Assembly (NCBI GenBank): GCA_021818565.1
Contig: JAKATV010000366.1
Coordinates: forward strand, 1-24,680
DNA length: 24,680 bases
Origin: Planctomycetota bacterium
Lineage (GTDB): Bacteria; Planctomycetota; Phycisphaerae; WQYP01
Reading direction: 5' to 3'
Shown: piece by piece, positions 2,594 to 6,479 of the stretch
How positions within the stretch are numbered: the first letter of the stretch is position 1
Layout: each line of letters opens with the position of its first letter
Translations under genes and position numbers: made by a program
The notes under the pieces: model-generated
What the model was told of the DNA's origin: nothing
What the model saw: the letters and a program-made list of their open reading frames with translations, nothing else
Databases searched by the model: none

Positions 2594-4009
2594 ATGGAAC
2601 AATCCGCAACAACCGCTCGCCCCCGCCCGCGTGAGGCACCCCTGACGCTCCAGCCGCAAAATGTGACGGACCGCACCCCCCCCCACGATTCCGCATCGGA
2701 AATGGCGCTGTTGGGTTCCATGTTGCTGGATCCGGAAGTCATTGGACCGGTCTGTGCGATTATTGAATCGGGCAATGCCTTTTTCAGTCGGCAGAACCAG
2801 ATTATTTTTGAAGGTATTCTTGAGCTTTTCCAAGCCAGTTCCGCAGTGGATGGTGTTACCCTCACCCACAAACTTAAGCAGAAAAATCTGTACGACGCCG
2901 CCGGCGGCTATGATTATCTTGAGCAACTGGTCAACTGTGTGCCCAGTGCCGCCAACGCCATCGCCTATGCCCAGATTGTGCGGGATAAGGCACTCCTGCG
3001 GCGACTTATCACGGCGTGTGCCCAGACGTTGGAATCCTGCTATGACAATTCCGAAGAGGCCGCGGTCATTTTAGACCGCAGCGAGCGCACCATCTTTGAG
3101 GTGGCCCAATTAAAAGTTACCGGCCAGCCGGTATCACTGACCGATGTGCTGCACGAAACATTTGAAATGCTGGACCGCAACACCGGCAACACCATCACCG
3201 GCGTGCCCAGTGGCTTTGTGGAGCTGGATAATCTTACCAGCGGCCTGCAGCGTGAAGAAATGATTGTGCTGGCCGCCCGCCCCAGTGTTGGAAAAACCGC
3301 GCTGGTTATGAATATCGTTGAGCATGTCGGCGTGGATTTGAAAAAGCCCGTCGCGGTGTTTTCACTGGAAATGTCCAAGCAGCAATTGGCCCAGCGTATG
3401 CTCTGCTCACGCAGCGGCGTGGATTCTCAAAATCTCCGGCGCAATATGCTTTCCCGCGAAGACCGCAACCGCTTGAGTATGGCGGTGGGGGAGTTGTCTG
3501 AAGGAAAAATCTTTATTGATGATACACCCGCATTATCCATTCTGGACCTGCGCACCAAGGCACGCCGCCTGTTAAGTCAGCATGGCATTGAGCTGGTGGT
3601 CATTGACTATCTGCAACTTATGGAAGCCCCGAGGGAGGAAAACCGGCAGCAGCAAATCAGTTCCATCAGCCGCGGCGTTAAGGCACTGGCCCGTGAATTA
3701 AAATGCCCCGTGGTGTGCCTGTCCCAGTTAAATCGCGCCTCGGAAAGTGAAAATCGCCTCCCCCGCACCAGTGACCTCCGCGAGTCCGGCAGCATTGAAC
3801 AGGACGCCGATGTCGTTATGCTCCTGCACCGTGAAGCCGTTATGCACCGCGGCGATCAGGAATGGGCCCAGGCCAACCCGGATAAACTCAATGAGGCACA
3901 ACTGATAATCGCTAAACAGCGCAACGGCCCCTGCGACACAGTCCGCCTGACATTTGTCGCTTCGCACACCCGGTTTGAAACCTATCATCCAGGCTCAGAA
4001 TTTCAATAA
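2594..4009 (+). CDS. dnaB: Replicative DNA helicase DnaB
   Basis: N-terminal PPHD..SE.ALLGSMLL, Walker A AARPSVGKT, FSLEM, Walker B IDYLQL, SDLRESGSIEQDAD and IIAKQRNGP. Length 471 aa, no intein. Confidence 0.98.
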   Translation: MEQSATTARPRPREAPLTLQPQNVTDRTPPHDSASEMALLGSMLLDPEVIGPVCAIIESGNAFFSRQNQIIFEGILELFQASSAVDGVTLTHKLKQKNLYDAAGGYDYLEQLVNCVPSAANAIAYAQIVRDKALLRRLITACAQTLESCYDNSEEAAVILDRSERTIFEVAQLKVTGQPVSLTDVLHETFEMLDRNTGNTITGVPSGFVELDNLTSGLQREEMIVLAARPSVGKTALVMNIVEHVGVDLKKPVAVFSLEMSKQQLAQRMLCSRSGVDSQNLRRNMLSREDRNRLSMAVGELSEGKIFIDDTPALSILDLRTKARRLLSQHGIELVVIDYLQLMEAPREENRQQQISSISRGVKALARELKCPVVCLSQLNRASESENRLPRTSDLRESGSIEQDADVVMLLHREAVMHRGDQEWAQANPDKLNEAQLIIAKQRNGPCDTVRLTFVASHTRFETYHPGSEFQ

Positions 4010-4040
4010 TCCAATATTCGTATTCCCTCCCCCAGACGGT

Positions 4041-4073
4041 CTGTAGCTCAATGCGACAGCGTTGAGTTTGCAG
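4041..4073 (+). terminator. Possible stem-loop between convergent dnaB and the Zn-ribbon gene
   Basis: CTGTAG-CTCAATGC-gaca-GCGTTGAG-t-TTGCAG pairs with G-U wobbles. There is no clear U-tract, so the terminator role is uncertain. Confidence 0.3.
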
Positions 4074-4176
4074 CGCAAATGTATTGTGATGACACGGCGC
4101 GCTTCAGTTCGTCGCGATAAGCACACCACGTGCCCCGCCGGAGCGGACCCGCGCATCCGAGGCCGGAGACAACCCA

Positions 4177-4428
4177 TCACCACGGCGGAGAAAACAGCCA
4201 ACTGATAATAAACATCGCCAAGGCCAAAAATAACAGTGCAATGCCTATAAACTTCACAGTACCTCCGCCACCAAGCAATTGGCGGCTGGTAATATATTCT
4301 CCGCAAAATGGACAACGCGGCGTGTCATCGTAAATGGTCTTTTTGCAGTTGGGGCAGGCCGCCGTGTTGATATGGTTTTGAATTTTCCAGTGTTCATCGT
4401 CATAGCTGTCATCATCCTGGTACGTCAC
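4177..4428 (-). CDS. Small zinc-ribbon membrane protein (about 83 aa)
   Basis: GTG start at 4428 with GAGGA 7 nt upstream. It has an acidic N-terminus (QDDDSYDDE), CPNC..CPFC, and a C-terminal hydrophobic helix (FIGIALLFLALAMFIISWLF). The ORF-track start at 4503 runs through the palindrome and is probably too long. Confidence 0.8.
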   Translation of the reverse strand: MTYQDDDSYDDEHWKIQNHINTAACPNCKKTIYDDTPRCPFCGEYITSRQLLGGGGTVKFIGIALLFLALAMFIISWLFSPPW

Positions 4429-4538
4429 GTGCTTATCCTCCGGAAGAGTGTCAAAGCGTGCCGCTGGGCCAATTGGGCAACAGCCTGTTGCCCAATTGGC
4501 CATGATTGTACATGCGTTATAATAATATGCTTATACAT
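4425..4538 (-). CDS. Candidate 37-aa small ORF MYKHIIITHVQSWPIGQQAVAQLAQRHALTLFRRIST carrying the YhcG palindrome peptide
   Basis: ATG 4538 overlaps the yhcG stop (ATGTATAA), and its TGA overlaps the downstream GTG start (GTGA). There is no SD and no homology support. Confidence 0.25.
   Translation of the reverse strand: MYKHIIITHVQSWPIGQQAVAQLAQRHALTLFRRIST
4467..4501. repeat. 35-bp palindrome (17-1-17) GGCCAATTGGGCAACAG-C-CTGTTGCCCAATTGGCC; copy 1, downstream of yhcG
   Basis: Read directly. Bases 4470-4499 are identical to 5413-5442. Confidence 0.95.
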
Positions 4539-5520
4539 ATGATACATCCGGCATTCGCGCCCGACTGTTGGTCGTTGACGGATTGCGTTTTTTACTCGCG
4601 GCGGGCCGCATTGGCGGCAGTTTCGCGGGCTGCGCCAGTTCCGCCTCAATTTCTTTTATGGACGGCAGACTGGACTTAAGATCTTTCGGCAATGCGCGGG
4701 TAATTTCATACTCAGAAACACCGATGGGTTTCTGCAGGCCGCGCAGGGCGTACTCCGCGACCACCCGATTGCGATCCTGACATAGAATCAGACCAATGGA
4801 TGGATTGTCCGCCGGGTGGCGCAATTTATCATCCACAACGTTGAGATAAAAGTTGACTTTGCCGGCGTACTCGGCTTTGAACGCGCCCTTTTTAAGGTCG
4901 ATGACAACATAACAGCGCAATTGCAGGTGATAAAATAGCAGATCAATATAGAAATCGTCGCCGCCCACCTGAACATGATATTGACGGCCGACAAAGGCGA
5001 AGCCCTGTCCCGCCTCGATCAGGAATTTTTCCAAGTGGCGCAGAAGCTGTGTTTCCAGCTCACGTTCATGAAAAGGCTCAGTCATGGTCATGAAATCGAA
5101 GATGTAGGGATCTTTAAGGGCGTGCGAGACTAAATCAGACTGATGGGCCGGCAACTTATCGCGAAAGTTGGTGACGGCGTTGCCCTGCCGTCGATGCGTT
5201 TCGCGTTTAATCATGAGTTCCAGTACATTGCGACTCCACCCGTGTTGGAGTGTCTCACGCATATACCACAAGCGAATAGTGGGGGACTTTACCCGCTGCA
5301 TCAGCAGCACATTATGCCCCCAGGGCAATTGGGCAACAGCGTGTTGCGTAACTGTAAAATCCTTGTCATGCGAGGGTTTGGTCTGCACATTGCGTGAATA
5401 TTGGCCGGATGTCAATTGGGCAACAGCCTGTTGCCCAATTGGTAGAAGATGGGGATATTCGCGACAGAATTGCGTCATCAATTTCAAATTTCGTTCGGAA
5501 AAGCCTTTCACTTCCGGCAA
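4531..5520 (-). CDS. yhcG: DUF1016/YhcG-family PD-(D/E)XK nuclease, apparently lacking its first about 60 residues (5'-truncated; possibly a pseudogene)
   Basis: GFSERNL, LPWGHN, GWSRNVL, LKDPYIFDF, ERELETQL, FLIEAGQGFAFVGRQ, FYIDLLFYH, VVIDLK, GKVNFY, IGLILC, PIGVSEY and LPSIKEIEAEL. The reading frame begins at the family's ELPEVKGFS motif, right after the ubiA stop. Possible starts are TTG 5520 and GTG 5511. Confidence 0.9.
   Translation of the reverse strand: MPEVKGFSERNLKLMTQFCREYPHLLPIGQQAVAQLTSGQYSRNVQTKPSHDKDFTVTQHAVAQLPWGHNVLLMQRVKSPTIRLWYMRETLQHGWSRNVLELMIKRETHRRQGNAVTNFRDKLPAHQSDLVSHALKDPYIFDFMTMTEPFHERELETQLLRHLEKFLIEAGQGFAFVGRQYHVQVGGDDFYIDLLFYHLQLRCYVVIDLKKGAFKAEYAGKVNFYLNVVDDKLRHPADNPSIGLILCQDRNRVVAEYALRGLQKPIGVSEYEITRALPKDLKSSLPSIKEIEAELAQPAKLPPMRPAASKKRNPSTTNSRARMPDVSYV
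5326..5354. repeat. Degenerate copy 3 of the palindrome (CAATTGGGCAACAGCGTGTTGCGTAACTG), inside yhcG, encoding VTQHAVAQL
   Basis: The first 15 bp are identical to the other copies and the right arm has several mismatches. Its centre is 87 bp from the centre of copy 2. Confidence 0.85.
5413..5442. repeat. Copy 2 of the palindrome (14-1-14, CAATTGGGCAACAG-C-CTGTTGCCCAATTG, plus one further shared G), inside yhcG, encoding PIGQQAVAQL
   Basis: A 30-bp exact direct repeat of 4470-4499, offset by 943 bp. Confidence 0.95.
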
Positions 5521-5525
5521 CTCCT

Positions 5526-6479
5526 TTACCGGTATAACAGAATCGCCGCGATGGTGGTCAATCCGAAAATCAGTCCGACCAATCCATTCATGGTCATAAA
5601 TGCCAGATTCACTTTGGAAATATCATTCGGTTTCACCAGCGATTGTTCAATGACCAAAAGCAGCACTACAATTACAAATCCCAGCCAATAAATCGGCCCC
5701 AGGTGCAAACCTCCGCCGACACCCAGGCCGAAGGCCAGCAGCAGGGCAATCACAAGAAAATGGCAGGCACGGGAAATCCACAGGCTTTCGACAACGCCGA
5801 ATCTCGCCGGCAGGGAAAAGAGCTTCTCCTTGCGGTCAATATCCACATCCTGCAAAGCATACAGAATATCAAATCCCGGCAGCCAGAACAGTACCGCGCC
5901 CGCCAACAAAAGATCCTGCACGCCCAGCACCGGCCCATGCGGCGGCACGATGGCGATCCAGGCGCTGATGGGGGCCAGGCACAGCGAGCTGCCCAGAAAA
6001 AAATGGCACAACCAGGTAAAGCGCTTGGTAAAACTGTACAACGCAATCCACCCCAGCACCGGTACCGCCAGAACCACCGGATATATATTGCCTAGAATCA
6101 GCTCAAATAACAGCGTCGCGCCAATAAACAATAACCCGCAGATCACCAGCGTCCCGATCATAAACGCGACTGATACTTCCCCCGTCACGCTTGGCCGGCG
6201 CATAGCGCGCGGGTTGCGGCTGTCAAAATCCCGATCCACCAGGCGGTTAAACGTCATGGCAAATGTCCGGGCCAGAACCATGCACAGCACAATTAATCCC
6301 AGACGCATCCATCCCGGCCACACCAAATCAATCGCCCGCGCTGCCAAAAATGCCGCGATCAGCGCAAACGGCATGGCAAAAATGCTGTGGGAAAATTTGA
6401 TCATGTCCAGAAAAGTGCCAAAGCGTTTGAGCAAACCGGGTCTGTCCTGGGGCATGGCGGTGTTCGAATCAGTCATCAT
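5526..6479 (-). CDS. ubiA: UbiA-family polyprenyltransferase (4-hydroxybenzoate octaprenyltransferase-like; MqnP-type)
   Basis: MIKFSHSIFAMPFA, ARTFAMTFNRLVDRDFDSRNPR, YSFTKRFT, GFDILYALQDVDIDRKEKLFSLPARFG and many TM helices. This is the subfamily found with ubiX in the futalosine menaquinone pathway. Confidence 0.9.
   Translation of the reverse strand: MMTDSNTAMPQDRPGLLKRFGTFLDMIKFSHSIFAMPFALIAAFLAARAIDLVWPGWMRLGLIVLCMVLARTFAMTFNRLVDRDFDSRNPRAMRRPSVTGEVSVAFMIGTLVICGLLFIGATLLFELILGNIYPVVLAVPVLGWIALYSFTKRFTWLCHFFLGSSLCLAPISAWIAIVPPHGPVLGVQDLLLAGAVLFWLPGFDILYALQDVDIDRKEKLFSLPARFGVVESLWISRACHFLVIALLLAFGLGVGGGLHLGPIYWLGFVIVVLLLVIEQSLVKPNDISKVNLAFMTMNGLVGLIFGLTTIAAILLYR

Follow-up and report, generated by a model that had tools for sequence, protein, structure and literature searches.

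A position-locked palindromic element of yhcG/DUF1016 nuclease genes and its duplicate copies in a Phycisphaerae genome

Introduction

Palindromic, locus-specific sites that occur in several nearby copies, some of them inside coding sequence, are known from the ParB-parS, KorB-OB and Noc-NBS systems. Here we describe an element that resembles them in a 24,680-nucleotide (nt) stretch of DNA from a Planctomycetota bacterium (contig JAKATV010000366.1; hereafter the window), where a 29-nt palindrome lies inside yhcG, a gene of the YhcG/DUF1016 nuclease family, and again past its stop codon. The likeness extends to the protein, as the best structural matches of a model of the YhcG N-terminal domain (N-domain) are the DNA-binding domains of ParB, Spo0J, KorB and SopB, weak as these matches are. 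In contrast to the ParB-type proteins, YhcG has neither a CTPase nor the ParB N-terminal domain, and the fold match reaches only Z 5-7. Its palindrome is odd-centred and 27-35 base pairs (bp) long, compared with 13-16 bp, and occupies one fixed codon position family-wide, where it shapes the encoded peptide; the partner domain is a nuclease.

Other described systems provide further comparisons. At quasi-palindrome template-switch hotspots, known from the Ripley model and from E. coli reporters, imperfect palindromes are driven to perfection. The DUF1016 palindromes share with these hotspots the flips of the centre base, the clustered changes in one arm and the gain or loss of tandem units; however, the hotspots occur in arbitrary genes, whereas the DUF1016 element is conserved at one position across phyla and has a consensus. 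As with lac O2 and auxiliary operators, a palindrome within an open reading frame (ORF) is accompanied by a second site some hundred bp away, but the YhcG site lies in the putative regulator's own gene, is conserved throughout the family and overrides the peptide sequence. Short palindromes that duplicate are also found in the REP/REPIN-RAYT system, and Rickettsia palindromic elements (RPEs) lie in frame inside genes. Unlike these, with the many dispersed copies and the RAYT of the former, the palindrome has two copies in the window's assembly (80% complete), matches to its covariance model (R1) at DUF1016 loci only, no RAYT, and a fixed, orthologous position in place of scattered insertion. 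Integron attC cassettes are similar in that the DNA inserted here consists of a promoterless ORF, beginning 14 nt beyond the stop codon upstream, and terminates in a folded palindrome. However, the window has no IntI or other integrase, and the palindrome is 29-35 bp rather than 57-141 bp long, has no extrahelical bases, is perfect in its copies and also lies inside the ORF; by inspection, GGGCAAC / GTTGCCC do not fit the R''/R' motifs RYYYAAC / GTTRRRY.

The YhcG/DUF1016 family, defined here by Pfam PF06250 and PF17761, is very widespread and uncharacterised, with at least 8000 homologues listed. Its members are found preferentially in defence and restriction loci, and YhcG is the PADLOC candidate defence family PDC-S02. 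Kosinski et al. 2005 (PMC1189080) placed the nuclease domain nearest to archaeal junction resolvases and YraN. Our search of the literature on DUF1016/YhcG and palindromes found no paper describing the palindrome element. That a family carries a DNA palindrome which overrides its own protein sequence at a single fixed position offers a handle both on the function of the family and on nucleic-acid constraints that shape coding sequence, and the presence of the element in E. coli K-12 makes it directly testable.

Copies of the palindrome in the window

The palindrome CAATTGGGCAACAG-C-CTGTTGCCCAATTG is present twice in the window, at 4470-4498 and 5413-5441. The two copies, one inside yhcG and one past its stop codon, are identical over 30 nt (4470-4499 and 5413-5442), in direct orientation and 943 bp apart from start to start, as the earlier note on this DNA had described. 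No match to the palindrome appeared in 100 dinucleotide shuffles of the window. The search for further copies that the earlier note had proposed returned only these two in the 3.19-Mb assembly with up to three mismatches allowed, and R1 matches were confined to DUF1016 loci, so that a genome-wide repeat was rejected. An assembly artefact as the source of the duplicate is ruled out because the same arrangement recurs in four independent metagenome-assembled genomes (MAGs) and several metagenome runs.

The internal copy, P1 (5413-5441, no strand assigned), has 14-nt arms around a 1-nt centre, which is the first base of an Ala codon. It encodes PIGQQAVAQL on the minus strand and scores 45.8 bits with R1. 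Among 1000 synonymous-codon shuffles of yhcG the longest perfect arm had a mean of 6.1 nt and a maximum of 12, compared with the 14 observed. The extragenic copy, P3 (4467-4501, no strand assigned), has the extended form 17-1-17 and scores 47.5 bits. It lies 29 nt past the yhcG stop codon (4531-4533), separated from it by an AT-rich spacer (4502-4530, minus strand, 29 nt) that belongs to the inserted DNA described below, and is about 38 nt away from the next gene, which probably starts with the GTG at 4428. As DNA, P3 is predicted to form a hairpin of -20.2 kcal/mol (z = -6.6). A sigma-70-like match, TTGGCC-16-TATAAT (10/12; a consensus match only), begins on the plus strand in the right arm of P3 (4496-4523) and is directed antisense towards the 3' end of yhcG.

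Between them lies a degenerate middle copy, P2 (5326-5354, no strand assigned), with four mismatches and an R1 score of 22.2 bits, which encodes VTQHAVAQL directly before PWGHN. No stable hairpin is predicted at P2 of the window, and the copy is near-perfect in the sister genome G006. Relative to G006, four substitutions in P2 cluster in the left arm and centre (5341-5354), with none in the right arm, and lead to five amino-acid changes within eight codons. The window's YhcG and that of G006 differ by 16 amino-acid changes, 5 of which cluster in P2, and dN/dS between the two genes is 0.27. The centre base of the palindrome (window 4484; locus L005 1600 and 2543) is C in some copies, species and metagenome contigs and flipped to G in others. 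Inversion of the loop by template switching would give such flips.

A family-wide element in DUF1016 genes

The palindrome is a conserved, covarying and gene-specific element of the DUF1016 family. We sampled 80 DUF1016 loci from many phyla, with subsets of 76 and 65 in individual tests. Perfect palindromes with arms of at least 9 nt are concentrated ahead of the PW.HN motif: 62 of 114 lie within the 260 bp before it, which make up 4.4% of the bases (452 kb, 76 loci). The longest perfect arm in this region has a mean of 11.2 nt, against 5.2 nt in synonymous-codon shuffles (65 loci), and for 47 of the 65 loci none of 200 shuffles reached the observed arm. All 61 palindrome centres analysed fall in codon phase 0, on the first base of the same codon. 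P1 has the phase and register of these 61 other centres, is odd-centred, precedes PW.HN and matches R1, which identifies the element of the window as the family type.

Watson-Crick pairing is kept at about 97% at arm positions 3-12 and is relaxed at positions 1-2. In an alignment of 61 copies, 11 of the 12 arm pairs show changes on both sides, and 94% of the cells are paired compared with 72% after shuffling. Arm mismatches comprise 15 of the G-T type and 25 of the A-C type, with no G-U excess. The consensus includes an invariant C/G at arm position 3 and an AATT outer arm, and the encoded peptide follows the DNA, reading for instance IVPQxVAQL, IGKQxVSQL, ILSQPVREL or IISPPLVAKL. The family-wide excess of palindromicity over synonymous shuffles, a comparison proposed in the earlier note, and the extragenic copies at other loci together bear out its view of the palindrome as a feature at the DNA level.

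DUF1016 genes hold one to four copies of the palindrome, often with a 39-nt period. An exact 39-nt (13-codon) period with two to four units is seen at locus L105 (1789-1942) and at L035, L038, L041, L045, L049 and L053. Across the window's genome, G006 and a Dyadobacter genome, R1 matches occur only at DUF1016 loci, with the exception of one fossil copy in G006. This solo copy (L100 2254-2290; contig C233 of G006, 30253-30289) reads ILAQPVREL, lies outside DUF1016 genes and adjoins a nucleotidyltransferase-like ORF. A search of window positions 4000-6000 at a permissive threshold found no relevant Rfam family.

Extragenic copies stay close to the gene. Among 98 loci, a count suggested by the earlier note gave five family-like copies in the 46 kb that lie no more than 250 bp from the gene and none in the 363 kb beyond; about 5% of these genes have extra copies beside them. 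An internal and a downstream copy that together bracket the nuclease domain are found again in a G002 paralogue, in Dyadobacter and in E. coli K-12, a recurrence that is reported here for the first time. The downstream copy lies 49 nt past the stop codon in Dyadobacter, which has another copy upstream, and 12 nt past it in K-12 yhcG. In the G002 paralogue (contig C109, 50% identical) a distance of 973 bp separates the copies, and their identity extends into a 9-nt flank that is not palindromic; since the repeat includes this flank, the bracket points to a plain duplication.

Insertion and deletion at the yhcG locus

Comparison within the genus places the window in a series of insertion and deletion alleles. 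Its closest relative, G006, has an intact YhcG of 419 amino acids, which begins 14 nt after the ubiA stop codon, and three near-perfect palindromes, two of them coding and one downstream. The 298 bp that this gene carries in addition at its 5' end correspond to L005 1213-1510. They are missing, with the same junction (window 5518-5528, minus strand, directly after the ubiA stop codon), from the window's own genome (G000), G002 and G009. G002 also lacks about 395 bp inside yhcG as well as 87 bp between the two internal copies (P2-P1), and G009 lacks exactly the 943 bp between P1 and P3. In G004 and G007, ubiA directly adjoins the zinc-ribbon gene that lies downstream of yhcG in the window, and neither yhcG nor a palindrome is present. 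Because of these two genomes, yhcG and the downstream palindrome are recognised as an insertion between ubiA and the zinc-ribbon gene in an ancestor of four species of the genus. P3 is a duplicate of the internal copy that arrived with the gene; it marks the 3' edge of the insert to within a few bases and is identical between species at 33-34 of 35 positions, compared with 46-48 of 60 in its 60-nt flanks.

The direct palindrome copies act as deletion end-points, of the 943 bp in G009 and of the 87 bp in G002, and the losses in the genus are consistent with repeat-mediated deletion. The four-species deletion series, including the exact 943-bp loss, is new here. The earlier note had read the two copies as attL/attR-like scars, with 11-bp arms around a 7-bp core and a 943-bp circle that could excise, and had named an allele with a single palindrome as a product to look for. 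Such an allele exists in G009; it keeps a 5' stub of yhcG, as a deletion between 30-bp direct repeats gives. The proposed geometry does not hold, as the symmetry runs through the 7-bp core to the 1-nt centre and leaves no asymmetric 6-8 bp overlap region. Pfam scans of the large ORFs of the window found no recombinase or transposase, in agreement with the note's own statement that no recombinase is encoded there. No circle and no 4470/5442 junction was seen in Logan contigs of four metagenome runs; since the contigs break at palindromes, this absence is not evidence either way.

No close donor of yhcG was found among 301 genomes of the class. Among the matches listed, the closest homologues outside the genus are P0003 and P0010, with 72-73% identity. 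A target duplication of 8-9 bp (GCCGTGGCC-like) at the ends of the insert was considered from G004 and G006, which are too diverged at these ends for it to be called.

The window allele of yhcG (4531-5520, minus strand) is decayed. It reads as 329 codons from a TTG at 5520, with a better-placed GTG at 5511. The PD-(D/E)XK domain YhcG_C is intact (Pfam 1.2e-65; 220.6 bits with the cut-off at 32.5; match over positions 3-157 of the 157 in the profile), with the nuclease motifs FYIDLLF and VVIDLK present, and DUF1016_N is incomplete, matching only positions 62-137 of 137 of its Pfam profile. At the deletion junction, AAGGAG stands 9 nt before an in-frame GTG, and the truncated protein may therefore still be produced. 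Full-length and truncated 5' alleles co-occur in contigs of the same metagenomes: contigs break at 5522/5523 with loose ends that resemble the full-length 5' part of G006, and at the junction a contig of X9 is longer by about 300 bases. In contigs of runs X3 and X8, position 4535 is followed directly by 5212, so that 676 bp of yhcG are left out. With only 27 nt on one side, this joint is too weak to interpret; it may reflect another deletion allele or have arisen in assembly.

E. coli haplotypes

Rearrangements at copies of the palindrome are also found in E. coli. The K-12 genome has four copies, at 3360631, 3368129-3368240 and 3368969 of NC_000913: the first directly follows gltD, two are scored within yhcG and the last comes after yhcG (copy positions in E. 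coli loci: L097 2956-2982, L101 232-258 and L096 6969-6993); a third internal palindrome of K-12 yhcG has a different arm sequence. In 946 of 5426 complete E. coli genomes, a single palindrome stands between gltD and nanQ; to its left is the same flank as after gltD in K-12, to its right the flank that follows the yhcG-distal copy there, and yhcG is absent from the locus. This count is new here. Compared with these genomes, K-12 differs by an 8.3-kb indel between two copies, which holds gltF, the yhc fimbrial genes and yhcG. The O157 yhcG lacks 78 bp relative to K-12, equal to two 39-nt units, and in one group of strains yhcG ends exactly at the end of the third palindrome (L098 2003-2040), beyond which come about 470 bp that are unrelated and carry the annotation of a small 'transposase'. 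The indel, the 78-bp loss and the broken yhcG, all at copies of the palindrome, establish that the copies are recurrent rearrangement end-points. Together with the genus series, the E. coli haplotypes provide natural examples of short palindromic repeats as end-points of deletions and indels.

Putative function and alternative explanations

The upkeep of paired arms, the peptide that follows the DNA, the specificity for the gene, the arrival of the P3 duplicate with the gene, the 298-bp loss and the use of copies as deletion end-points form an account that, taken jointly, we regard as very probably correct. The best explanation overall, to which we incline with some reserve, is that the palindrome in the window is a local copy of a position-locked nucleic-acid element of YhcG/DUF1016 genes, which lies in DNA encoding a disordered loop of the N-domain. 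A model of this domain, built with a 75-sequence alignment, has a mean predicted local distance difference test score (pLDDT) of 85, and the one disordered stretch in it, with a pLDDT of about 49, is where the peptides encoded by the palindromes lie. The AlphaFold2 (AF2) model of the full-length protein is poor (pLDDT 55), and YhcG has no sequence match in the PDB.

As to what the element does, a role as a binding site is a tentative proposal that we would sooner doubt than assert. The element would be a double-stranded DNA site for the predicted ParB/KorB-like N-domain of the protein itself. Binding would serve autoregulation or would hold the nuclease at its own locus, the extra copies beside the gene would be auxiliary sites, and template switching or gene conversion would reinforce the perfect symmetry and the identity between copies. 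The proposal draws on a VIA structural search, in which the best eight matches of the N-domain include ParB-parS, Spo0J, KorB, KorB-operator and SopB-DNA structures with weak Z scores of 5.0-6.8: 6s6h with Z 6.8, 1vz0 with Z 6.3 (root-mean-square deviation 2.8 over 88 residues), 8qa8 and 1r71 with Z 6.2-6.3, and 3mkw with Z 5.0. In the same search, P1 ParB and VirB scored near Z 4. A cognate YhcG site, one of the possibilities raised in the earlier note, is the best functional guess available, with modest support from this weak likeness of fold; the cleavage and homing-like spread that the note had attached to it are unsupported.

Several observations weigh against a position-locked binding element. 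The Z scores lie below the level of 8-13 that is trusted for helical domains, and Foldseek searches with the full-length and N-domain models returned nothing significant (E > 1 for the N-domain). ParB and KorB sites are even-centred and shorter than the DUF1016 palindrome, outer arm positions differ among copies of one gene, and a single copy persists between gltD and nanQ in 946 of the 5426 E. coli genomes, where yhcG is missing from that locus. Template switching alone would also yield strict Watson-Crick symmetry on both strands.

The strongest alternative, unlikely in our view but far from negligible, is that the element is a functionless by-product, a quasi-palindrome in a loop-coding stretch that tolerates change, perfected, duplicated and copied by template switching and gene conversion, with deletions between copies as ordinary repeat-mediated events. 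The strict symmetry without wobble bias, the same on both strands, would follow from it, as would the C/G flips of the centre base among alleles and contigs, the tandem 39-nt units, two of which were lost in E. coli, and the four clustered substitutions in an arm of P2; the predicted disorder of the encoded peptide and the solo copy in E. coli genomes without yhcG at the locus fit it as well. However, mutation alone fails to explain a single codon phase in one family across phyla and archaea-derived loci, and leaves the persisting consensus at arm position 3 and in the AATT outer arm unexplained. Non-coding P3 is, moreover, far better conserved than its flanks, and R1 finds no copies in the rest of the three genomes searched.

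It is also conceivable, at rather long odds, that YhcG and its in-gene palindromes form a self-contained module in which the N-domain recognises the palindrome and the resolvase-like domain acts there. If so, the copies in and beside the gene would be working sites that drive its rearrangement, loss or spread, or that license the nuclease, and E. coli K-12 would then possess a system of nuclease plus site that has not been described. A related and similarly improbable scheme has the palindrome extrude as a hairpin or cruciform that is cut by the gene's own PD-(D/E)XK domain, making a recombination-prone module whose products are the observed breakpoints. The placement of this domain nearest to the archaeal junction resolvases and YraN (PMC1189080) speaks for cutting of this kind, as do the independent rearrangement end-points at copies in the genus and in E. 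coli and the relaxation of pairing at only the 1-2 central positions, as a loop requires. On the other hand, extrusion of arms of 12-17 bp is poor unless supercoiling is strong, and breakpoints at 30-bp repeats require no nuclease. The G009 deletion arose in an allele that had already lost the 5' part of the gene, and a copy stays intact in E. coli genomes that have no yhcG.

Function as an mRNA hairpin, be it an RNase III or stability determinant, a translational pause or, for the outer copy, a hairpin protecting the 3' end, is very unlikely, although a strong hairpin is predicted, the distance of 12-50 nt from stop codon to outer copy in the window, in Dyadobacter and in E. coli suits a 3' hairpin, and the solo copy of E. 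coli stands between convergent genes. The mismatch counts given above show no excess of the G-U type, pairing continues inwards until a loop of 1-3 nt is left, which an RNA fold would not require, and copies occur upstream and on either side of genes. There is no U-run and no Rfam family, a scan of 4300-5700 found no intrinsic terminator, and no T-run follows P3 on either strand. The RNA form of the processed hairpin suggested in the earlier note is disfavoured for the same mismatch counts and missing terminator tail; in its other form, the palindrome may act as a single-stranded DNA hairpin.

Least credible of all is the self-targeting mobile cassette, in which a 943-bp circle with the nuclease domain excises and re-inserts at a single palindrome: G009 is exactly the single-palindrome product it predicts, the G002 paralogue, Dyadobacter and E. 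coli show the same bracket, and P3 sits at the edge of inserted DNA, but the window encodes no recombinase, the symmetry reaches a 1-nt centre in place of an asymmetric core, the empty sites of G004 and G007 have no palindrome, the unit present or absent is the whole gene and not its 943-bp part, no cassette was found elsewhere in the genus, the repeat of the G002 paralogue includes a non-palindromic flank as in plain duplication, and the metagenome contigs, weak as they are on this point, hold no circle or junction, so that this reading of the window should be dropped.

Neighbouring genes and other features of the window

The window covers a housekeeping region in a Phycisphaerae MAG and includes dnaB, the zinc-ribbon gene, yhcG, ubiA, ubiX and ubiE among others. 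Upstream of yhcG lies the prenyltransferase gene ubiA (5526-6479, minus strand). The downstream neighbour (4177-4428, minus strand) encodes a small zinc-ribbon/membrane protein; its likely start is the GTG at 4428, with GGAGG upstream, and not the ATG at 4503 inside P3, a placement that follows from comparison with the insert-free G004. Just after dnaB, at 4044-4135, is a dispersed short repeat without an Rfam match, about 75-90 bp of which match dozens of places in genomes of the genus and in other contigs of the window's assembly with 75-90% identity.

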